NCBI GenBank assembly: GCA_951406725.2
Contig: OX597833.1
Coordinates: 31,682,001 to 31,746,000 of the forward strand
Direction: 5' to 3'
Origin: Octopus vulgaris
Taxonomy: Eukaryota
Length of the DNA stretch: 64,000 nt
In this document: in pieces, positions 1,931-61,356 of the stretch
How positions within the stretch are numbered: position 1 is the stretch's first letter
How the letters are laid out: each line of letters begins with the position of its first letter
Program-made: the position numbers and the translations under genes
The notes under the pieces: generated by a model
What the model saw: only the letters and a program-made list of their open reading frames with translations
What the model was told of the DNA's origin: nothing
Databases searched by the model: none

Positions 1931-4096
1931 GTAAGTTGTTTGTACATTCTACTGAACACCATTCAATTAGAATATTGGCTTAAGACTGGTGTGGCTTATC
2001 TGATGCAATGTGTTCAAACCTCAATGCTTGAGCTGTTTTGTGACCTAACTTTTGACTCATTCTATCTGAACATAGTTGCTATTCTCACTTTGTGGATGAG
2101 TGGTATTGGGATGTTATGTGGCTGTTAATTACTACACTCACAATGTTTTATTTTACATGCATATATGCAATAGTTTTATTTGTTTGTTGTTGTTTTAAAT
2201 CTATTTTGATATGTATTATTAGGAAATGTCATTTTACACCTTGAAAAAAAAAACCTTTCTAACCATTTTAACATAATGTGAGCATGGCAGCAACTGTGCA
2301 TTACAGATTTACTTGTTCGGCACTGATTGTTACTAATCGTCAATTTTCTGATCACAAGAATGTGTGAATGTTTATTCATTGGAACAAAACAACTTAGGTT
2401 TAGGACGTCTAGTATGACATTTATTACAACTGAATGTTGAATACTGTATTCACCATTTTCAGTTGTAGTAAATGTTTTTAAATGTGAGATGGCTGAATGG
2501 ATAGAATATTGAACTCCCTTTCTAGAAGTTGCATATTCAAATCTGCTACTGTCATTTCATTGTTTCTAGGTTGGTACACTTTATATTGCCTCAGCTTACC
2601 TAGCTGTTAATAATATACAAAAGAATCTTTTCCAGCTTCATCTTGTTTTGTTACTGTTGGGTCCAAACCCTGATGCTAATTATGGTCTGTGTATGATGAC
2701 TGTTATGCAATGGCCTAGTCCATGTTAAATTTGTTATGTGCAGGTGAGCCAGCTCTACCCATTCTTTAATTTCATCTGCAGCAGATCCTCAATGTAACAG
2801 GTTGATAGATTTGTATATTCTCACTGATAAAATATTAGTGACTGAAGCAGTATTAATACCAAAAGGCAGTCTTGATCTCCAAATTACTGCTGAAGGCTAT
2901 CTTCATTTCCAACATTGTGTGGGTTGTATTAAAATACAGAATGCCTTTGATATCGACTCATGGTGCATAAAAACACTTGTATTTGTATCACTGACAGACA
3001 AAAACTATCTGCTACGACTGCCAGAATTACCAGATCATATGATTTCACCTTACTTTTGGCTCCTCAGTAACAGATAGATGTCCAGCAGCAACATAACTGC
3101 TGAATCTCCCATCAACAAGCTCATATGAGAAAACCTTTCAAGCTGTTGCTGCTGGACATGGCAATGAGGAGCCCATAGGACAAAATCATTATGTGATCTG
3201 GTACTTTCAGCAGTTACAGTAGACAATTCTCATCAATGATACAAATACGAGTGCTTTTATGCACCCCAAGTCCATATGTAAGGCACTCCTATGGTAAATA
3301 ATGAAGTATTCTGTGTTCTAACACAACCTCCATGGAGATAAAGATTGCTTATCTTCAATTTAGACTTAATTTGTCAGGGACAGTAGTGACTGACAAAAAA
3401 GGTGGGGCAGTTGTAATAATGAAACTGGTCTGCCAACTATACACATTATTTGCAAATTCTTTCTTTAAGGATTAAGGATTACCAGTGATATTGAAGAGTT
3501 AGAGTATCTTCCATTAAACTCAGTTTCTTTGAAATAAACTCTCTCAGATGTTTTGATTACTCTTTTGTTTTTCTCCCTGCAGTTATTAGCCAGAGATGCT
3601 TTACTGAACTATTTATATTATCTCTGACTATAGCATTGTAGATTCTAACTGATACTTCTGAACAAACTTAACTTTTCTGTATTGACTATTTAGTAGCAAC
3701 ATTTTTTGTTATAATGTTCTGTTATTTTGATGACACTGTTTCCTAGTGTAGAAAATTGAACTCCTGTTTCTCTCTTTGATTATTTAGGTTTATGTTCTTA
3801 GTTTTCTCTGCAGCCCTTAAATAAATTTTTATTTCCTCTTCTAAATCTTGTTACTTTATCTGCTGCCACATTGAGACTCTTCATTTCTGCCCTCATGGTT
3901 TTACTTTTAATGTCTTGCATTTCTCTAAACTTTTTGCCCTCCCTCTCCCACACGTTGAATAGATATTCAGTGGTGATCAGAAATAATCAATAGCAAGTAC
4001 ATACAATTTCAGAGATAAATTATTGAAAATGTACTCTTTTCCTTAAACCATTTTAGTAGCATATTTTTGGCTGTAAACTTTTTCTTTCATTTTCAG

Positions 4097-20856: not shown

Positions 20857-20905
20857 TCTTGTTAGTAATTCAAATTGTTCATTTCTCTCTCGCACTTGAA
20901 CAACC

Positions 20906-21325
20906 ATGTCTGGACGAGGAAAAGGTGGAAAAGTTAAGGCGAAGCCTAAGACCCGTTCTTCGAAGGCTGGACTTCAATTCCCTGTTGGTCGAATCCATCG
21001 TTTGTTAAGAAAAGGCAACTATGCCCAACGTGTTGGTGCAGGAGCTCCTGTCTACTTGGCTGCCGTGATGGAGTATTTAGCTGCTGAGGTGCTCGAGTTG
21101 GCTGGCAACGCTGCTCGGGACAACAAAAAATCTCGAATCATCCCCCGTCACTTGCAGTTGGCTATCCGCAACGACGAAGAGCTGAATAAACTCTTGTCTG
21201 GTGTCACGATTGCTCAGGGCGGTGTTTTACCAAACATCCAAGCTGTCCTTCTTCCGAAGAAGTCTGCTGCCGCCGCTGTTTCCAAGAAGTCCGACAAGAA
21301 AGGGTCTCAATCTCAGGAATTTTAA
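20906..21325 (+). CDS. H2AX: Histone H2A.X (intronless, C-terminal SQEF)
   Basis: Intact 139-aa ORF with a full H2A fold (SGRGKGGK...[14 protein letters not shown]...[18 protein letters not shown]) and an extended tail ending KKGSQSQEF, the SQE(Y/F) signature. Start context CAACCATG. Confidence 0.97.
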
Positions 21326-34130: not shown

Positions 34131-35143
34131 TGAGATTGTGTGTCTGTCTGTCTGTGTGTTTCCCTAAAACTTGAGAACTACACAACCAATTTCATTTAAA
34201 TTTTACACATGCCTTACTTAAGGTCCGGGGAGTGTAATCGGCAAAACAATCTTAACTTTTTCCCTAGGGCGACCCCACAGCAATATCATATCTTCTCCAC
34301 TATTTCAGTATTACGTGTTAAAAGTGAAACAAAAACATCTTTCTTTTGTAACGCAGACACTTTCATTTTAATACTGAAACTAATAAAGTGAAAGTATTAT
34401 ATAACAGGGATGAACCATTAACAAGTGGTCATCCATTTTGCTAGAAGATCCGCTATGGTCTTATATGCTACACCACTGGTTTTCAATTCATATTAATCAA
34501 ATTAATATTCAATTTTGCACCCTTATTATGTGTGTGTATTAGCAATACATAGCATGTATTAGCAATTCATATAAAAATGCATCAATACCTTGAACTTGAA
34601 TAAGTGGTTTCACATAAATGGGGATACATTAAAAAGGTTTGTTATTATTATTACTGTTTGACTAATGTAATCACGTTTGTTGGTTCCTCGTCAGGGAAAC
34701 GTTGTTGTGTTGCATTTGTTAAATAATTGTAAACCGTAACCCTCCCCCTTTCGGAGAAAGGGCTTTGGTTATTGTTTAAAAATTGAATAGTGACTCTGTT
34801 TGGGGAAATTGACAATATTTTCACCGTCTTTACGGAAGCATTTTTCTTAAAATTCCTTCGATAGAAGAAAGTCCAAAAATGAATTTCGCTGCAGTCGTAC
34901 ACTTCTATACAAGAGGGAGGACAAGATCCAATTGATCAAAATTGCAAGAGACAGGCCTACAATTCCAGTCTGTTATATATTTTGAGTATTGTTATCACTA
35001 GCGATATCAAGATATAACTTTGTATTTTGTATTTTATGTGTAGATGTCTATATATAGATGTACATGTAATATGTACACATATATATACACATATATACAT
35101 GCATGATATATCTACCTATACACACATACGCACACATACACAC

Positions 35144-35174
<31 letters not shown>

Positions 35175-36385
35175 TACATAGGGGCAGGTGTGGCTGTGTG
35201 GTAACAAACTACGTTCCAAACACATGGTCCTGGGTTCAGTCCCACTGTGTGTTGACTTGGAAGGACAGCATATGTTCAAAAAGATTTCCAAGGAGGTTCC
35301 TACAAGAAACTCAGACAGGTGCTGATGGGTATCCATCATACAGACGCAGAAAACCAGAAGACGGAGGTTTCACAGCAACTATCGGACAGCACGATATTGA
35401 TAATAGATGGATTGTTCCATACTGCCAAACTCCTGTCAAAGACTTTCAATGCCCACATCAACGTTGAGTTTTGCAACTCCATCAAGTACGTTTGCAAATA
35501 TGTAAACAAGGGTTCTGATGCTGCAATGTTTGGACTTCAGCAAGAATACTGCCAGGATGAGGTGACGCATTATCAGGTGGGACGGTACATAAGTAGCAAC
35601 GAGGCTTTCTAGCGCATCTTTGGCTTTCCAATTCACCAACGACACCCCGCCATTCAACAGCTTGCAGTGCACCTGGAAAAAAGAGTGTACTTCCCCGATG
35701 CTAATGCTTCTCTGTTGGCAGATGAACCAAGGGATAGCACATTCACTGCATTCTTCAAGCTTTGTCAAGTGGAACGATTCGCCCAAACCTTGCTGTATCC
35801 ATAGATTCCATCGTGCTACACTTGGAATGGAAAAAAATGGGCCCCACGGAAAGCAGGTCAAAATGTTCATGGATACCCTGGCATTACGTTTTACACTTGC
35901 CTTGGGCGAGTATACACAGTGCATCCCACTCAACAAGAGTGCTTCTACCGTTGTCTACTACTGCATGAGGTCAGAGGGCCGTCTTTCCAGGCCCTAAAAC
36001 CGTTCATGGACATGTCTGCACAACATACAGAGAAGCCTGCTCTCGACAAGGTCTGTTAGAAGATTGTGCACAATGGGATGCAAATTTAGGAGAGGCTGCT
36101 TTAACACAATCACCTAAAAGTCTTAGGGCACTATTTGCATTATTACTACAAGCATGCGAACTGTGTGATCCGGCCACTCTATGGCTCAAATATAGAGATA
36201 ACCTGTCTGAAGATTTTCAGCGCCAAGCTCAACTGCTCTATCCTGACATGGAGGGTATCAGCAATGAAATCTATAACAAAACACTCATTGACATTGAAGA
36301 CAGAATTGCTAAACTGGGTGGAAATGAATTGTCAACGTATGGCCTGCCACAAGCATTCAGGTCAGGGTCAAATAGCCTTCCCACT
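34110..36385 (+). mobile_element. Helitron remnant with Rep-domain pseudogene
   Basis: 5' TATATAAAA...(GTCT)n signature. 35265-36370 encodes CSKRFP...DGYPSYRRR...DNRWIVPY, HINVEFCNSIKYVCKYVNKGSD (catalytic Tyr motif) and GRYISSNEA, with frameshifts. A SINE B head sits at 35180-35262. Confidence 0.85.
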
Positions 36386-36439
36386 ATTAAAATTAATTAG
36401 TTTTACCCTTTTATTATTGACAATATATGTATATATATG

Positions 36440-37638: not shown

Positions 37639-39298
37639 TTGCTCATGAATTCTGCCAAATGCCAGTTTTCTTTTCAGGTACATGAAGCTACTGTCCACCG
37701 TCCCAGGGTCTCTAGGGTCTATACCTCCCACACCCTCAGGGTTGGCACCCTCAACATTGGCACACTCAAAGGTAGGTCTGGCGAGATAGTCGAGAGGCTT
37801 GAACAGAGATGTGTTGATATATGTTGCATCCAAGAATTAAGGTGGAGAGGAGGTTCTGCTAGGTTCCTCACAGGCAAAGAACATAGGTACAAGATTTTCT
37901 GGGCCGGGAACACTGACGGGGTTGGGGGCGTGGGTATACTTCTCACTCAAAAATGGGTAGATAAGGTAATTGAAGTAATCAGAGTATTTGACAGAATACT
38001 AAAGATTAGATTAGTGCTTCATCATGGATTAGCAACCATTATATCGGCCTATGCTCCTCAGCCGGGGCTACCAGATGGACAGAAAGACCGATTCTATGAC
38101 ACCCTACTGCAGACTACCTCATTGATGAATGATAGAGACCTTCTCTTTGTGGCTGGTGACTTCAATGGGCATGTTGGACAACATGCTGGGGGCTTCCATG
38201 GAGGCTATGGTTATGGTTCCTGCAACGAGGAGGGAACCAGGCTGCTGGAGTTCTGCGATGCAAATGATCTTATGGTTTGCAACACTAACTTCAGGAAACC
38301 TACCAGCCAACTACTCACCTACCGATCTGGCCAACATACCAGTCAAATTGACTACATCCTTGCCAGGAAAAGGGAAAGATGGCTGCTTATAAATGCCAAA
38401 ACCTTCCCAGGCGAAGAATGTACCCCACAACATAGACTGGTAGTTAGTGACTTTAGGATCAGGACTAAGGACGACCAACTTGGAGAAGAAGGATCTGGAA
38501 GCTTAAAGATCCTGCGAATGGACAGAGATTTAGGAACATGTTACTTGAAGCTTTTGACGAAGTAGAAGGGGATAGAGCTTCACAATGTTGTAGACAGGGC
38601 TGTTAGAGAAAAGAGACAGGCTTGAAAAGACTGGAAGAATGGTGGTTGCAGGGTATTGTATCAGACTGCGAAAAGAGAAGCTAGGAGACAGGTCTATTTA
38701 GCCAGAGGGGAAGCAGATAAGAAAAAAATTTGCCAATATTCTGCACCGAGAGGACCAAAGACTTGAGGTATTTCGTGTTGCAAGACAGTGTGTGAGAGAG
38801 AATCGTGATGTGGTTGGAGAGAAATGTGTTCGCATGGAAGATGGTTCACTTGCGCTAAATGAGAATGCAAACAGAGAGGTTTGGAGACGCCACTATGAAC
38901 GGTTGCTGAATAAAGAAAATGAATGGGATAATGAGAGTCTGCCGAATGTCGACCCAACAGAGGGACCAGCTATCTGAATTGAAAGTTCCTTGGTAGTTAA
39001 GGCAATTAGAAGCATGAAGACAGGGAAAGCCCTAGGCCCATCAGGAATAACTGCAGAGATGCTCAAAATATCTAGTAGTGTCGGCTATAGCCTAGTCACC
39101 CGTATAGTTAATCAGGTGATACACGAAGAAGTCATACCCAATGACTGGTGTAGCAGCATAATAGTCAACTGCTACAAAGGTAAAGGTGACGCCCTAGATA
39201 CAAATAATTACAGAGGTCTCAAGCTGTTGGATCAGGTAATGAAGGTTACGGAGAGGGTCATAGCCCAACTAATTAGAGAGAGAGTTAGTTTAGATGAG
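37639..39298 (+). mobile_element. RTE LINE 5' portion (APE endonuclease and start of RT), 3'-truncated
   Basis: VGTLNIGTL, CCIQELRW, GVGILL, IISAYAP, AGDFNGHVG, SQIDYIL and QHRLVV, then KALGPSGITAEML...YKGKGD...NYRGLKLL. Confidence 0.93.
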
Positions 39299-39393
39299 AA
39301 TGCCGTTTCTGGATTAGTTGGATATAGAGATCAACATTTCCGTCATCAGAAATGTTTATCTCTATATCCAACTAATCCAGAAACGGCGTTCTC
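39296..39393. repeat. Fold-back palindrome (about 45-bp arms, 8-nt loop)
   Basis: GAGAATGCCGTTTCTGGATTAGTTGGATATAGAGATCAACATTTC is followed by its reverse complement with two mismatches. Confidence 0.9.
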
Positions 39394-39844
39394 AAGTAAT
39401 CAATGTACGTGTGATCTTTCATTATTTTTCCCTCTATACCTGCGTGAATTATTTTTGAGTCTACATTGTCTGGGAGACTTTTCTTATAGTAGAGGAAATA
39501 GCTAAAATTTTTTGGCTGCTATTTCTAAAAGTTCAGTGTGTGGTAAAGTAAATTATTTTACTGAACCCTAATTATATAACGTAATGTTTTAGATATACCG
39601 TAAATGGTTTTTTACATACTGAACACTACTTAGTAAAATTATTAATTAATAATTAATTAATTTTACCCATTTATTATTGACTATATATATATTGTATATA
39701 TATTGCTGCTTCAGTGGACTAGTAGGCATGGGTGTTGAGAAGTAGTAATACAACACATAGGTGGTGGTTTCAAATTCTTTCCCAAAATTACAAGAGATTT
39801 AGTTAAAAATTTTTTACATCTGTACATCACCCCCAATACTTCTA

Positions 39845-40077: not shown

Positions 40078-41347
40078 GCTACTAAATGGCTCAAATGTGG
40101 ATGTGATATATCTCGACTTTGCAAAAGCCTCTGATAAAGTTGACCATGGCATGATTTGTCACAAACTGCGTGGTCTTGGCATAGGCGGAAAACTTGGAGA
40201 GTGGCTGCACAACTTCCTAAAAGATAGAAGGCAGGCAGTTGTGGTCAATGGAGCCACCTCCAAGGAAACACAAATAACAAGCGGTGTTCCACAGACACTG
40301 TCTTGGGGCCACTGATGTTCATAGTGGCCCTTTCAGACATGCCCTCAGTTGCTCAGATGGCCACCCTTGCTAGCTATGCAGATGACACAAAAGTCTCCCA
40401 CACAATACAAACCCTGGAAATATTGCACATCTGCAACAGGAGTTGGATACAATATACAGGTGGGCTGAGGACAACAACATGCAGTTTAATGCAGGTAAGT
40501 TCCACACCCTGCGCTACCAGCACACAAAGGTAAACGACATGCAGACTGGATACACTGGCCCGGGAAGAATTGTAATCCCTGAGTCAAAATCAGTGCGTGA
40601 CCTGGGCATTGACATGAGCAATGATGCATCTTTCCAAGTGCATATTACTAATTTGGTGATTAAATGCAGACGGCTAGCTGGATGGATTCTCCGAACTTTC
40701 AGAACAAGAGAGAAGGAGACACTGATGGTCCTGTGGAAAACTTTCATCCTCAGCCGCTTGGACTACTGCTCCCAACTATGGTCACCACACAATATAAAGC
40801 TAACAGTAAAACTTGAAGCAATTCAGAGAAGCTACACTAAGAAGATCGTCTCAATGCAACATATCAGTTACTGGGAAAGACTGAAAGTATTAAAACTCTT
40901 CTCCCTAGAGCGGAGGCGGGGAGAGATATGTGGTGATATACATCTGGAAAATCCTGGAGGGTCTTGAACCAAACTTTGGCATTCAAAGTTACCCCAACCG
41001 CAGAACGGGGCGCCACTGTATGGTGCCAAAGATTCCAACATCACTATCAAAATACAGGACCAGATACTGCAACAGCTTGGATTTCAGAGGACCACAGCTC
41101 TTCAACATCCTCCCTAAATGCCTGAGAGATTTGCATGGTGTGGATGTGGGTTTCTTTAAAACTAAACTGGATCTCTTCTTGTCGGGGGTCCCAAATGAAC
41201 CTACCTCACGGCAGGAGACACAGATGCGGGCAGCGGCATCAGACTCCCTTGTTGACCAAGTGCCACGTATCAGAGGTGGATTCATATATTAGTGTAGTTC
41301 ATTCAGCGGTGGTACCCCAGCATGGACGCAGCCCTCGGGCTGAAACA
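40078..41347 (+). mobile_element. 5'-truncated CR1/L2-group LINE (RT pseudogene)
   Basis: [44 protein letters not shown] and YWERLKVLKLFSLERRR motifs. Tail GGTGGTACCCCAGCATGG...GCTGAAAC. Confidence 0.9.
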
Positions 41348-41950: not shown

Positions 41951-42210
<260 letters not shown>

Positions 42211-43503
42211 CGAGGGGCGTTCAATAAGTAATGCCCCTGACCCACTTGCAGTTGTTTGATCTAACTGAAATTTTGCATGTGCAATTATTCATATCTCTAT
42301 AGATTAAGTAGCAAATTACACCTCTGAACTAATTGTGGTTTCTGATTTACAGGTGTTTGAACTGAGTCAAGTGTGAAATGGAGCCTGTTGAGTGTCGAGC
42401 AGTGATCCGGTTTTTGTATTTGAAAGGACGCACACCACAGGAGACTTTTCATGAAATGAAAGTAACTTATGGTGATGATGCCCCATCATATGACCTTGTA
42501 AAACGATGGCATCGTGGATTCAAACATGGTTGGAACTCTGTGGAAACAGCTCCCAGATCTGGTCGCCCCCACTTCTGCCATTGATGAGGCATCTGTCCGT
42601 CAAGTTGAGGCTACCATTTTGGAAGATCGACGCATAACTATTCACCAAATAGCCCATGAGGTCAAGATTAGTACCGGGTCTGTGGAAACTATCATTCATG
42701 ACCATTTGCATATGCAAAAGGTGTCTGCCAGATGGATTCCCAGGCTGCTCACACCTTTCCAGAAGCAAGAACGCGTCGAGTGCTTAAGGATGAATTTGGA
42801 GATGTGTCAAGAAGATGAGTCAAAATTTTTCAAAAGACTGATTGCACAGGATGAAACCTGGGTCCCTCACTATGATCCAGAGACCAAAGTCCAGTCAATG
42901 CAGTGGAAGCACCGTGATTCACCTCCTCCAAAGAAGGCAAGGGTGCAGCCCTCCGCTGGCAAGGTCATGCTCACAGTCTTCTAGGACCAAGACGAAGTAG
43001 GGATGACAGTTTTCCTGGCAAAGGGTACCACAATTATAGGAGCCTATTATGCTTCACTTTTGAGGAAATTAAGAGAAACTATCAAAATCAAGAGGCGGGG
43101 CAAGATCAGCAAAGGCATCCTCATCCTGCAGGACAACGCTCCGGTCTACAACTCGCTTGTCGCCAGATCAGAAGCACAGGCGTGCGGCTATGAACTCCTC
43201 CCCCATCCCACCTACTCTCCTGACCTTGCACCCTCTGATTTTCACCTCTTCCCAGCCATGAAGTTGTTTTTGAAAGGAAAGCGTTTCCCAGATGATGCAG
43301 CCTTGATTTCTGAAGTCACGTCGTGGTTGGAGGACCAAACTGGGTCTTCTACAAAAACGGTCTCCAGAGCTGCATCAAACGATGGGAGAAATGCGTAACT
43401 CTGGGTGGTTCCTATGTAGAAAAAGACTAATAACTTTGCCAAGTTTCGTTGCTCTACTGCTATGGGAAGTGGGTCAGGAGCATTACTTATTGAACGCCCC
43501 TCG
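42211..43503 (+). mobile_element. Full-length mariner (DD34D, irritans-like); transposase disrupted
   Basis: TA TSD and 37-bp TIRs CGAGGGGCGTTCAATAAGTAATGC(C/T)CCTGACCCACTT. Transposase 42378-43430 has WIPRLL, QDETW, QDNA and YSPDLAPSDF, with two frameshifts and one stop. Confidence 0.95.
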
Positions 43504-43505
43504 TA

Positions 43506-44615
43506 GGTGGTAGTAGCCAATGGGGCCACTTCCATTAACACGCAAATAGTGAGTGGTGTTCCGCAAGGCACTGTTTTGGGACCACTACTGTTCATAATGG
43601 CCCTCTCAGACATGCCCTCAGCCACGCAGAGAGCCACGATCACAAGTTATGCAGACGATACAAAAGTTTCACAGGCAATACAGAACCCTGAAGACATTAA
43701 GTACCTGCAATGTGAGCTGGACAAAATATACAAGTGGGCTGAAAAGAATAGCATGCAGTTCAATGCTGAAAAGTTTCAAGCTTTATGCTATCAGCATGCA
43801 AAACTAAATGCAATACCCAATAAATACACTGGACCTGGAGGGATTGCAATCCCAGAGGCACAATCAGTGTGAGACCTGGGTATTTACATGAGTGATGATG
43901 CAATCTTTCATGTGCATATTGCTAAAGTGGCAATGAAATGTAGGCAGCTGACCAGATGGATTCTTAGAACCTTTAGAACAAGAGACCAGGAAACCATGAT
44001 GGTCCTCTGGAGGACACTTGTCCTAAGCCACTTTGACTATTGCTCTCAGCTATGATCATCATCCAGAGTCAATTTAATCACGAAGATAGCCTCTGTGCAG
44101 CATATAAGCTACTGAGAAAGACTCAAGAGATTAAGACTCTATTCCTTAGAGTGTAGGCGAGAAAGATATGCCATAATATGCATCTGGAAGATCCTAGAAG
44201 GACTTGTCCCAAACTTTGGCATCGAGAGTTACACAAATGCCAGAACTGGGCGCCACTGCATAGTGCCAAGGACTCCAAATTTGCCATCATAATGTAGGAC
44301 AAGATACTGTGATAGCCTGGGCTTCAGAGGCCCACAGGTCTTCAATATCCTCCTGAAGAACCTGAGAGACCTGCATGGGGTGGATGCAGATGTCTTTAAA
44401 ATAAAACTGGATCTCTTCTTGTCAGGTGTCCCAGATGAACCAACTTCATGGCAGGAGGTGCAGATGAGGGCAGCTGCATCGAACTCTCTCATGCACCAAA
44501 TGGCAATTGCTAAAAAGCATTCGTGAAGTAAAATCATGTAGCAACACCAAATGGCGGTGCCCCAGCATGGCCACAGCTCGTGAGCTGAAACTAGATAAAG
44601 AAAGATAAAGATAAA
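43506..44615 (+). mobile_element. 5'-truncated CR1/L2-group LINE, related to 40078-41347
   Basis: SGVPQGTVLGPLLF, YADDTK and WAEKNSMQFNAEKF motifs. 3' tail GGCGGTGCCCCAGCATGGCCACAGCTCGTGAGCTGAAAC followed by (GATAAA)n. Confidence 0.9.
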
Positions 44616-44883
44616 GATATATATATGAAAAAACAAGTCAAGATAGAAAATGCTAAAATAATTTTATAAAGAACATTTCAGTACCGGTTTCGGTCATTTG
44701 AGACCTTTTCAACTGTAACTATTAAATAATTGAATTTAGAAAAATTAAAAGAAAAGTTTTTCTAAATTAAATTATTTAATAGTTACAGTTGAAAAAGTCT
44801 CAAATGACCGAAACCCGTACTGAAATGTTCTTTATAACATTATTTTAGCATTTTCTATCTTGACTTGTTTTTTCATATATATC
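44616..44883. repeat. Palindrome with about 128-bp arms, each carrying a hammerhead-like motif
   Basis: Arms 44616-44744 and 44757-44883 are reverse complements with few mismatches. Confidence 0.92.
44679..44715 (-). ncRNA. Minimal type I hammerhead ribozyme-like motif, U3-A8 core variant
   Basis: CAG-TTGAAAA-GGTC-TCAAAT-GACC-GAAA-CCGG-TA-CTG. The mirror copy at 44786-44822 (+) has two substitutions. Confidence 0.7.
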
Positions 44884-44905
44884 AACTCGTATGTCCCTTT
44901 TCATC

Positions 44906-44986
<81 letters not shown>

Positions 44987-52128: not shown

Positions 52129-52270
52129 TATATATATATAACAATTAAGGATAACTTCTTAATAAGGAATCTTAACAAGAAATTATCAGGTAGTTAGTGT
52201 AAAAACCTCATAAAAGAAAAGAATTCGAAAATAATTTTTTTCTTTTGAACAAATTAATTATATCTATATT

Positions 52271-52732
52271 TTATAGAGGGCATTATTACACATAAATGCC
52301 TCACACTAAGAGGGACAAAGTCATTACTACCAAAATTACACTAATCATACCTAAATGCAGTTCTTCAAAGCAAGACATTTAAAAAATGAATTTAGTTCTG
52401 TATCACCGTGATTTCACATTTAACTTACGTCTATGATCCTCAGCAGAACTGATTCTGAACACATCATAAATAAACCACCAACCTTACCTAGCGAAGACGA
52501 ACAGACATCTATTCACTCCGGCCAAGCACATGGAATGTTTATAAATCATATATCCGGTAAATGGGATCATAGACGTAAGTTAAATGTGAAATCACGGTGA
52601 TACAGAACTAAATTCATTTTTTAAATGTCTTGCTTTGAAGAACTGCATTTAGGTATGATTAGTGTAATTTTGGTAGTAATGACTTTGTCCCTCTTAGTGT
52701 GAGGCATTTATGTGTAATAATGCCCTCTATAA
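52271..52732. repeat. 169-bp inverted repeat with 124-bp spacer
   Basis: Arms 52271-52439 and 52564-52732 appear to be exact reverse complements and are flanked by TA-rich sequence. Confidence 0.95.
52395..52449 (-). ncRNA. Type I hammerhead ribozyme-like motif, canonical core
   Basis: GTTCTG-CTGAGGA-(TCAT...ATGT, weak stem II)-GAAA-TCAC-G-GTGA-TA-CAGAAC. The 6-bp stem I is perfect. Confidence 0.7.
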
Positions 52733-52887
52733 TATATATATATATATATATATATGTGCCCAATAAGATTGAAGTGCACATTTCACACTCTGACTTGAAA
52801 ATAGGTTCGGTGAAGTTGTGATAAAAGGTAGATTTAAAAATCAATCAAGGTGATTTTAATGTATATATATATATATATATATATATA

Positions 52888-56958: not shown

Positions 56959-58815
56959 AATAAAAAATGGAGTCAACGCAGGTTTAAACAAGTATTTTTT
57001 CTTTCTACATATGTTTCAAAAATTCCACTGATACTTATTCAAAAGAATAAAAGGTATAAACAATGCAATCTTCTCTTCGGGAAAGTGATAAAACGAAACT
57101 TGTCAATACAACATTTTAGCAAAAAATGATGGATTCGTATAGCGATAGACAGAACGCTATTAATATTGTTTAAAAAAACGTTATATGATATAACGTCATA
57201 AGTAGCTAACAGAAAGAGTAGGGATATTAATAGTGAATGTTAAATATAAAGGAAATTAAAGTCTGAACTATATATAATGATAGAGACTACTTATATGCAC
57301 TAAAAGTATGTTTTTGCCAATGCTTACATCTGTATGCTCGTTCTATAACCGTGTTTACTAGAGTATTTTTAGAAAAAATAATGAAAAATAGCTCAGAATT
57401 GCAGAGAAGACAGAATTTCTTGCCTTTGTCATATGGTATCGAAATTGAGAGGATCAACCATTCCAAATGAAATTGTTCATTGTGGTCTTTTAAATTCCAA
57501 ATCAGTTTGCTGAGACGGATAAATGAATGAAAACGCTATTTGAAAACGCTATGAAAAAATACCGTTAAATAAAGGGAAATTACTGTGTTATAACTCTGCT
57601 TGCTTGCGTACTTATACATCTCTCGCATTTTTCGTCATAAAAATTATATAAAAATACATAAAAAACATATAAAAATATATAAAAATATATAAATTCTTCT
57701 TGGGACATAACATAGAAAGCATGTTCTATCTGTTTTCTTTAGGGGACCAAAAACGTAACAGAAATTTTGTCACATGTGGGCATGATCCGAAAAGCTCTGT
57801 CCTTGTATTTAGACATGTAGTAGGGTCTAAGCTGCTTTTCCAGATAAGCCATCTCTCCATGTCGCATAGACCGCACCTTCCACTGCCGTTGGTATAGGGC
57901 TTACATCTGGCCAAAATCTTCCATTGTATGTTATAATCGACACCTTTATCTCTTAAAGACCAAATATGATTAGATAATTGTGTCGCTTTTCTTTTGTTCC
58001 AGTGCCTAAAGCTATTTCCTAGCACTGATAGATAGACATTTTCCAGTTAACCATACTTATAGGAAACACTTCAATAGACACAATTTAAAAATTAGTTTTA
58101 GTTCAACTACCAATTTTAAAAACATAATCAAACATAACATACAAAAAACACAACAAGAAAACAGCTGTTCATGCAGGAATAAAGAATTGTGCCCGCTAAA
58201 TGGAGCTTGCATGTCCAAGACCATCATATATGAAGCTACTGTAAACTCTATAACCACTAAAGACACCGTTTCGATGAAGAAATACATGGGCCTTACGGAG
58301 GGTAATTTGAAGGCCAGGTTCAATAACCACACTTTGAGCTTTAGGCACTGGAACAAAAGAAAAGCGACACAATTATCTAATCATATTTGGTCTTTAAGAG
58401 ATAAAGGTGTCGATTATAACATACAATGGAAGATTTTGGCCAGATGTAAGCCCTATACCAACGGCAGCGGAAGGTGTGGTCTATGCGACATGGAGAGATG
58501 GCTTATCTGGAAAAGCAGCTTAGACCCTACTACATGTCAAAATACAAGGACAGAGCTTTTCGGATCATGCCCACATGTGACAAAATTTCTGTTACGTTTT
58601 TGGTCCCCTAAAGAAAACAGATAGAACATGCTTTCTATGTTATGTCCCAAGAAGAATTTATATATTTTTATATATTTTTATATATTTTTTATGTATTCTT
58701 ATATAATTTTTATGACGAAAAATGCGAGTAATGTATAAGTACGCAGGCAAGCAGAGTTATAACACAGTAATTTCCCTTTATTTAACGGTATTTTTTCATA
58801 GCGTTTTCAAATAGC
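56957..58815 (+). mobile_element. Penelope-like element with inverted pseudo-LTR
   Basis: Plus-strand GIY-YIG ORF 58187-58624 (CSC..CPLNGAC..IIYEATV..YMGLTEG..KARFNNH..SCPH). About 57535-58012 is an almost exact inverted copy of 58342-58815 and continues on the minus strand to 56957. Confidence 0.92.
57001..57085 (-). ncRNA. Type I hammerhead-like motif (CCGAAGA core, long stem II) in the inverted pseudo-LTR
   Basis: CTTTC-CCGAAGA-GAAGATT.CATTG...CAGTG.AATTTTT-GAAA-CATATG-TA-GAAAG. A related truncated copy at 41879-41950 ends GAAA-CATATG-TC-GAGAG. Confidence 0.65.
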
Positions 58816-58816
58816 C

Positions 58817-58879
58817 AGATAACCGAAGAGATGGTGTTGTGGATTTCCACTTCGGCATCTGAAACTCAGAGTTTTATCT
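58817..58879 (+). ncRNA. Type I hammerhead-like motif (CCGAAGA core)
   Basis: AGATAA-CCGAAGA-GATG...CATC-T-GAAA-CTC-A-GAG-TT-TTATCT. Confidence 0.6.
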
Positions 58880-59101
58880 TGATTACCGAGTAATGTAACA
58901 TATTATTGTATAGATAAATTTCCTCTATTTACATAATATTGAGGTCTCTTTCTTTCTTTTGTTAACTTACCGTTTTATCAATATATATATATTGAATGAA
59001 TGAGACCTCGATATTATATAAATAGAAGAATTTATCTGTACAGCTATACACACACACACACATATATATATATATCAAATATGTGTATATATATATTGTG
59101 T

Positions 59102-59825: not shown

Positions 59826-60171
59826 TGGAAATTGCAGATGTCTTACCAGTGCCGGTGGCATGTAAGAGAACCTTCCGTTTCGCGACCGTTGCCAGCGCCG
59901 CCCTGACTGGCCTCATGCCGGTGGCACGTAAAAAGCACCATCCGTTCGTGGCCGTTTGCCAGCTCTGTCTGGCACCTGTGCGGGTGGCACGTAAAAAGCA
60001 CCCACTACACTCACGGAGTGGTTGGCGTTAGGAAGGGCATCCAGCTGTAGAAACACTGCCAGATTTGACCGGGCCTGATGAAGCCTTCTGGCTTCACAGA
60101 CCCCAGTAGAACCGTCCAACCCATGCTAGCATGGAAAACGGACGCTAAACGATGATGATGATGATGATGAT
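59826..60171 (+). mobile_element. RTE LINE 3'UTR fragment
   Basis: GTGGCACGTAAAAAGCACC repeats, the conserved terminal segment and a (GAT)7 tail. Confidence 0.88.
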
Positions 60172-60280
60172 ATATATATATATATATGTATACACACATT
60201 ATATTTAGGTATATATATGTATATAATATATATATATATTTATATTATATATATAAATATATATATATATGAAATTTATA

Positions 60281-61356
60281 TTAATGTCTGTTTTCCATGT
60301 GGGCGAGGGTTGGATGGTTTGACTGAGGTCTGGAGAGCCAGCAGCTGCACCAGGATCCAGTCTGGTCTGGTATAATTTCTACAGCTAGTTGCACTTCCTA
60401 ATGCCAACTACTCTGAGAATGTAGTGGGCATTCTTTACGTTCCGCTGGCTCAGTAGCCAGTAAGGCAGGCCTGGCAACGATCACATTGGGATTTCTCTTT
60501 TTATGTGCCACCGGCACAGGATCCAGTGCAGCAGTCCTGGCATCAGTCACAGGTGGTTGGTGCTTTTTATGTGCCACAGGCACTGGAGCCTGTAAGGTAT
60601 GCCTGGCAACGAACATGTTCAAATGTTGCTTTTAAAGTGCCACTGGCATAGGAGCCAGTCAGCGAGGTACTAACATCGGTCACGATCAGTTGATGTCTTT
60701 TACATGCCACGAGCACAGTAGCCAGTCTTGGCAGACATGTCTCCATCCACATTTGGATGGTACCTTTGATGTGCCAGAAGGCACCAACCCCAACTATGAT
60801 ACTGGTTTTATTTGACTCAACAGGTCTTCTCATGCATATCACATAGCTGTCTTCATTCATATGTAACACATGGCCATACCAGTACAGGCATCTCTCTTGC
60901 ACATCACATTTGATGCCACTCATGCCCAACTTTTCTTCTAGGGCTCTTACACTCTGTCGTGTATGTACACTGACATTACACATCCAGCAGATCATACTAG
61001 CTTCATTTCTTTGAAGCCTACACAAATCGTCATCAGGCACGGCCCATGTTTCACTGCTGTGGAGCATGGCATCGTACAATCTACCTTTCTCTCTGAGCGA
61101 GATGCCCTTTTGTCATCAGTAGGGGTAGAAGCTATTCTTATTCTAGTTGTAATACTCTTTGAGCAGCCATTCCCACAACTGTCTTGTCTCCTACATAGTG
61201 GAAGCTATCAACTAATTCTAGTTTCTCACCCTAGCATGTGATGGAATTTGTTTTTTGAGAATCTGTGGTGTTTATTGCCCCTGTGCATCTGCCATACACG
61301 AAAGTTATCTTCCTGGTTAATATTGTTGCTGCACCTCTTATGTGTCCATAGCTTAT
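60281..61356 (-). mobile_element. Diverged RTE LINE 3' part
   Basis: ORF 60567-61079 (LHSSETWAV...RNEASMICWMCNVS...YWYGHVL) followed by RTE 3'UTR. Confidence 0.88.

Follow-up and report, generated by a model that had tools for sequence, protein, structure and literature searches.

What could have placed two hammerhead ribozyme motifs on opposite strands of a single palindrome, and is the arrangement kept for its function or left behind by the way in which the sequence arrived? The question arises from a first-pass annotation of the 64-kb window analysed here (the whole stretch of 64,000 nucleotides), which is animal DNA, microsatellite-rich and full of transposon debris.

Geometry and setting of the palindrome

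Alignment of the arms and location of both motifs confirmed the annotated palindrome with its two U3-A8 hammerhead motifs on opposite strands. The inverted repeat consists of two 128-bp arms (44619-44746 / 44755-44882) with five mismatches, at 44663/44838, 44685/44816, 44705/44796, 44732/44769 and 44745/44756. The extent originally given, 44616-44883, needed adjustment: the arms span 44619-44882, and the right side runs on to ~44906 as a one-sided tail. Folded as RNA, the palindrome has an MFE of -170.5 kcal/mol (z = -34), a stability reached by 0 of 200 shuffles. The parts distinguished at the locus, with the basis for each, are as follows.

44592-44626 (+): insertion context on the left, where a LINE's (GATAAA)n tail passes into (TA)n (sequence)
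44619-44766 (-): inverted copy of the repeat's 3' end, 5'-truncated and without a tail, comprising the left arm and the native central hairpin (arm alignment, family contigs)
44679-44715 (-): intact minimal type I hammerhead motif with U3-A8 core, 4-bp helix II, palindromic ACCGGU helix III and A17; cut predicted after 44682 (descriptor, weak Rfam HH9 match)
44735-44766 (no strand): native 10-bp inverted repeat, 44735-44744 / 44757-44766, with a 12-nt loop; junction of the arms (sequence, family continuation past 44766)
44757-44882 (+): sense, 5'-truncated copy of the repeat's 3' end, the right arm (off the family majority at 44796, 44816 and 44838)
44786-44822 (+): damaged hammerhead copy, with G10.1>A (44796) and G>C in helix III (44816) (motif alignment)
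44883-44906 (+): one-sided 3' tail of ~24 nt, lacking on the left arm (loose-end consensus, run X4)
44907-44986 (+): insertion context on the right, a (TA)/(CA)n microsatellite (sequence)

The LINE to the left of the insertion retains an RT fragment (PF00078) at 43507-43869, and a second LINE copy lies at 40293-41346. A composite element made of LINE plus palindrome was considered and rejected, as LINE tails in public runs go on into varied simple repeats. Both flanks of the insertion are microsatellite, and no target-site duplication is readable at the locus. BLAST detected no second copy of the palindrome in the window, and at the locus no open reading frame starts in the sense arm or after the motif in the manner of PAc (Poseidon of Anolis carolinensis).

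Hammerhead motifs and their published relatives

The minus-strand motif is ordered as a 3-bp helix I, UUGAAAA, a 4-bp helix II, GAAA, a CCGG insert, UA and helix I again. Its 5' part comprises CAG of helix I (44715-44713), U3 (44712), A8 (44707) and helix II (44705-44702 with 44695-44692), while GAAA (44691-44688), helix III ACCGGU (44688-44683), A17 (44682) and CUG (44681-44679) make up the 3' part. Core boxes 3-9 and GAAA..UH are present in this copy, and helices I and II follow the type I order. The Watson-Crick 3-8 pair is U3-A8 in both copies, and the G10.1-C11.1 pair, present in the minus copy, is lost in the plus copy. The two motifs differ at 2 of 37 positions (44796 and 44816), in agreement with the earlier description of an intact minus copy and a plus copy with two substitutions.

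A minimal-hammerhead descriptor allowing C3-G8 or U3-A8 matched once in the window, at the minus copy, and at least once in 3 of 300 dinucleotide shuffles. The Rfam search returned 0 matches at gathering score; below threshold, Hammerhead_HH9 matched the minus copy weakly (23.5 bits vs a gathering score of 52, E = 0.0017) and the plus copy at E = 8.2. MicroRNA matches at the E-value threshold were rejected, since any long hairpin produces them and they lay far below gathering.

The predicted fold has four structural features of the minimal hammerheads of Penelope-type elements (PLEs), without their usual bulge after A9: no nucleotide is bulged between A9 and G10.1, and helix II is short (4 bp). 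That bulge is a consensus feature, not a universal one, and PMC4209133 lists motifs without it for M. japonicus and S. kowalevskii(2); its absence lowers the likeness to the PLE consensus, and the class still fits. The core change noticed in the first-pass annotation, a swap of the 3-8 pair to U3-A8, is real and is an already published natural variant of PLEs: U3-A8 covariation, with ~1,300 matches, is described for Cercyon PLEs of Schistosoma mansoni (PMC4209133), so the swap seen here was inherited from the family and is not new. The same source reports pairs of PLE motifs on opposite strands 100–700 bp apart, and small palindromic helices III in PLEs of fly, rotifer, shrimp and mosquito.

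The Cercyon hammerheads resemble the motif studied here in being minimal and of type I, in having the UUGAAAA core, listed for the PLE-associated entry S. mansoni 4, and in their predicted activity as dimers (PMC4209133). They differ in that the present motif has a 4-bp helix II without a bulge after A9 and a 2-nt palindromic helix III insert, in another host and another family, and in that a link to a PLE ORF was shown for them. The PLE of Marsupenaeus japonicus (PMC4209133 supplement) shares the 4-bp helix II without bulge, the CG loop and A17, and Chlamys-2_cBra (PMC8557442 File S2) has an identical ACCGGT helix III; both, however, carry the standard C3-G8 core in place of U3-A8. The hammerhead of Hydra-1_oBim is likewise C3-G8, unlike the motif here. 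None of the published Octopus Hydra/Naiad entries in the PMC8557442 supplement matched any of four short hammerhead-region motifs exactly, although line breaks in that text could hide a match; a short motif derived from the tail occurred twice in the same supplement, by string match alone.

Scans with exact patterns gave 0 matches in metagenome contigs and 0 in viral contigs. Looser patterns gave one match in genome contigs and three in metagenome contigs, and all four were rejected as chance, none having a pairing helix II or flank similarity; two of them (L002 and L003) were the same sequence and another (L001) lay within an 805-aa bacterial ORF.

Minimal hammerhead motifs of PLEs cleave weakly in vitro (PMC4209133), and such motifs cleave as dimers (review PMC6765202). 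The computed self-duplex of helix III, ACCGGU, has -8.3 kcal/mol in the intact copy vs -0.3 in the plus copy, and two intact copies co-fold at -24.1 kcal/mol vs 2 × -10.4. In the plus copy both the closing pair of helix II and the dimer helix are lost. Helix I is 3 bp long, and an extension of ~4 bp past an A-A mismatch is possible with the family majority letter at 44720. A dimer held together by the self-complementary helix III would be the cutting form of the ribozyme in the parent element. No direct assay of U3-A8 activity was found in the literature searched, which included PMC7151607 and PMC3884650; the family provides a convenient natural U3-A8 ribozyme motif for a rescue assay. The U3-A8 core variant, the pairing of motifs on opposite strands and the hairpin-shaped insertion have each been published already, and the locus alone means little.

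The 5' strand of helix I also resembles a splice acceptor, an AT-rich run ending in CAG, at 44713-44730 (-) and in the 44786 region (+). In Penelope of D. virilis, the 5' end of helix I is where an intron ends (PMC4209133).

The repeat family in public runs

Part of the stretch was contained in 20 of 24 listed public runs, representing 9 studies and 4 organism labels, and evidence on the family was drawn from contigs of six runs (X1, X2, X4, X6, X9 and X12) mapped onto the stretch. Summed contig depth over the left arm was 1e4–1e6, vs ~20–60 for single divergent contigs (runs of organisms A, B and C), a measure that shows abundance and is not equal to copy number. The sequence is a very abundant repeat. 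Family pieces were also present as contigs in X9 and X12, which are guessed to be RNA; these contigs show neither strand, ends nor locus, and so speak neither for nor against expression.

Across runs X2, X4, X9 and X12, all 13 core positions were free of variants at 4% or above, and U3-A8 is the family consensus; the check named beforehand, whether UUGAAAA is the consensus core, was thus answered positively. The first-pass annotation had gone further and read the paired change as a sign of selection on ribozyme function over decay. This is without support at the locus, where the plus copy is damaged and the arm differences hit the motif at chance rate (2 of 4 differences within the 37-nt motif; P = 0.38, computed on 117 positions). 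Family-wide, variable sites numbered 0/13 in the core vs 7/111 in the flank (Fisher p = 1.0), a weak test in a homogeneous family. This count covers X2 and X4 at a threshold of at least 4%, minus the locus-private site 44732 and five rows due only to the small runs guessed to be RNA. The U3-A8 consensus shows inheritance from the source element and is no proof of selection on each copy.

Elsewhere in the motif the family does vary, with C>U at position 11.1 (42% of depth in X2, 19% in X4), G>A at position 10.1 (5% in X2, 1.6% in X4) and a one-letter insertion in loop 2. In all four runs compared, the share of U11.1 was higher among right-arm contigs, which carry A10.1, than among left-arm contigs (36 vs 15%, 60 vs 42%, 32 vs 19% and 54 vs 16%). 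This arm-wise enrichment, which is unphased, gives a hint of an A10.1-U11.1 subfamily, and a second paired change may be arising in the family beside U3-A8. If true, this would supply natural variants with which the core pairs required by a minimal hammerhead could be probed. A second subfamily was visible at loose ends behind 44698 (49 contigs in X2, 37 in X4); it carries A10.1, its loop 2 is shorter and its upstream sequence differs. Common family variants at 44720/44674, 44723/44671 and 44724/44670, also unphased, could lengthen helix I by pairing.

Behind position 44766 the family goes on with another sequence in 6 of 6 runs. Contigs continuing past this point numbered 30 (X1), 22 (X2) and 18 (X6) in the first run set and 23 (X2), 20 (X4), 2 (X9) and 3 (X12) in the second; among the 32 of 5042 pieces listed, none crosses 44766. 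Contigs fitting both arms were placed on one arm, and depth cannot count other loci with the same junction. Since the family diverges past 44766, the inverted repeat at 44735-44766 belongs to the family itself, and it is across this repeat that the arms meet; its loop is asymmetric and could therefore be assigned to the left arm.

At the outer ends, the loose-end consensus before 44619 in X4 equals 44883-44906 at 21 of 24 letters (by eye), and related loose ends occur before 44630/44631 in X2, X4 and X9, from which it follows that the right arm bears a 3' tail and the left arm is without one. Many family copies end in (TA)n without a tail, and in X1, X2, X4 and X6 a (TA)n run closes the loose ends before 44617. 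At 44720/44781 both arms have a rare letter, whose share of family depth does not exceed 0.7% in X2 and 1.7% in X4; this sharing indicates that a single source gave rise to the two. Of the 116 positions outside the native hairpin, 4 differ between the arms, the right arm being off the family at 44796, 44816 and 44838 and the left arm at 44732. The palindrome is a trait of one insertion, the usual form of the family being otherwise. Apparent 'opposite strand' joints near 44690/44800 were set aside as artefacts of contigs mapped onto the mirror arm.

Origin and fate of the inverted layout

The palindrome is most likely explained by the anatomy of PLE insertions, a point missed in the first-pass annotation. 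In Pen2a/Pen3a of Adineta vaga, inverted pLTRs are joined at a junction palindrome, the tail is on one inverted pLTR, and the head-to-head arrangement is the most frequent (PMC3846280). Naiad and Hydra elements show an inverted 5'-truncated copy, a 30–40-bp tail and a (TA)n bias (PMC8557442). The locus shares with these insertions a head-to-head inverted truncated copy, a junction palindrome, a single-arm tail and an AT-rich/(TA)n target; it differs from them in that both arms are under 150 nt, no ORF lies between them and the tail is ~24 nt. As read from its sequence, the locus has four layout features of PLE insertions: an inverted 5'-truncated copy joined head to head, a palindrome at the inverted junction (44735-44744 / 44757-44766), a tail on one end only (~24 nt vs the published 30–40 bp) and an AT-rich/(TA)n target in the flanks.

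We therefore consider it likely that the palindrome is the scar of a single insertion by a PLE enzyme, in which the 3' end of the very abundant repeat entered a TA microsatellite twice, head to head, as short 5'-truncated copies. The element would work like a PLE end and very probably is one; no RT or GIY-YIG ORF could be tied to the family, of which 30 letters upstream of 44766 were covered.

In the proposed sequence of events, twin priming as the simplest reading, the PLE enzyme would nick both strands of the TA target, two cDNAs of one source element would be started, each at a different end of the tail, and their 3' ends would anneal through the native inverted repeat before fill-in. The mechanism is borrowed from PAc, whose purified protein nicks and extends both strands, starts at two sites bounding the tail and is needed by the PAc hammerhead (PMC11167929). 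The PAc system differs in having a C3-G8 core and an ORF starting in helix II, and in having been shown in vitro. In its finer detail, that the junction geometry records twin priming at the two tail-bounding start sites, joined at an element-encoded 10-bp hairpin that would be an inversion hotspot, the account is tentative and drawn from one locus. It is based on the tail-less arm owning the native loop, the tailed arm being cut back to the 3' strand of the hairpin, and a single source element. If inversion junctions cluster at the native hairpin with the loop always on the tail-less arm, this would help to decide between self-priming and twin priming in PLEs, a question left open by PMC3846280.

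An analogue lies in the same window, 13 kb away, where a PLE endonuclease fragment (58010-58624) is accompanied by a 479-bp inverted copy, the same kind of inverted 5' copy. This fragment (region 57535-58900; ORF 58010-58624, +) resembles the Hydra-clade alignment in the PMC8557442 supplement by eye and has no Pfam match. Its inverted copy (57535-58013, 98.3%) is joined at a 4-nt palindrome and ends just short of the hammerhead region. At 58817-58882 (+) there is a Hydra-type hammerhead-like motif with C at core position 4 (CCGAAGA) and a helix III, ACTC-A-GAGT, like that of Penelope-3_HM; either decay of this copy or variation within the family may lie behind it.

The fate of transcripts was modelled by equilibrium folding of growing prefixes, without kinetics. 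The motifs point outward, so that transcription of either strand reaches the antisense arm first; each motif is thus preceded by its own antisense arm and the hairpin is predicted to win. Helix II probability was 0.0000 at 5 of 5 transcript lengths on each strand in read-through RNA, and returned to 0.69–1.0 only for minus-strand starts at 44745-44775. The competition between long hairpin and cleavage that had been envisaged for transcripts of either strand is without support in these predictions: in read-through RNA the hairpin is predicted to win outright, and its 128 bp would close on RNA of either strand ahead of the motif's own fold. The locus is likely to be inert debris, or at most a source of dsRNA.

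Alternative accounts concern either the parent or the event. The parent may have been a retrozyme-like repeat, a few hundred bases long and coding for no protein, which borrowed the PLE enzyme, and not the end of an autonomous PLE, the insertion mechanism being unchanged; this is possible, although we lean against it. The absence of an open frame starting in the sense arm would fit, as would the potential lengthening of helix I by ~4 bp with the majority letter at 44720, and non-LTR retrozymes have been proposed as non-autonomous PLE derivatives (bioRxiv 10.64898/2026.07.22.740005). Metazoan non-LTR retrozymes (PMC7229834) resemble the family as non-coding repeats with type I hammerheads, but they form head-to-tail tandems with mostly canonical motifs, whereas the locus is head to head, without a head-to-tail tandem, and has a minimal motif with a 3-bp helix I. 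As for the event, a single cDNA could have folded back on its native 10-bp hairpin, primed and copied itself, and later lost the tail from one end by trimming. The junction coincides exactly with a hairpin into which a single cDNA could fold (~-4 kcal/mol as DNA), the rare allele is common to both arms, PMC3846280 reads junction palindromes as self-priming with a preference for an antisense template, and PMC8557442 ascribes the tail to endonuclease resolution. The native loop, however, sits on the tail-less arm, so that simple fold-back of that arm cannot supply the tail and an extra trimming step is needed, and the two start sites observed in vitro already account for tailed and tail-less ends (PMC11167929); fold-back is a possible but less likely reading of the junction.

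Two other accounts are much less likely. A MITE or foldback DNA transposon with a hammerhead motif present by chance in its terminal inverted repeats would agree with a short AT-rich palindrome in TA context and with the other self-inverted stretches in the window, yet it is very improbable, as family contigs diverge past 44766 with no second arm and the ends are asymmetric, with a tail on one side. Still less probable is a host-selected RNA switch between hairpin and ribozyme cleavage, or a dedicated siRNA or editing substrate. One motif is intact, the transcript would form 128 bp of dsRNA, and a central start on the minus strand would free the motif; against this, the plus copy is damaged, the motif is not spared by arm differences, the antisense arm is always made first in read-through RNA, and the PLE insertion process fully accounts for the layout.

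Several further features were recorded in the window. Self-inverted stretches occur at 52259-52744, 59846-60586, 39295-39394 and 2939-3288, of which 52259-52744 has long near-perfect arms with (TA)n at its right end, and a short imperfect palindrome surrounds a (TA)n run at 58887-58990. Reading frames at 35000-36400 resemble Helitron Rep/helicase fragments, with no Pfam match for 35969-36397. A mariner-like transposase remnant (PF01359) with 39-bp terminal inverted repeats lies inside LINE-derived sequence at 42209-43505, and a histone H2A reading frame (Pfam PF00125, PF16211) occupies 20900-21325 (+).
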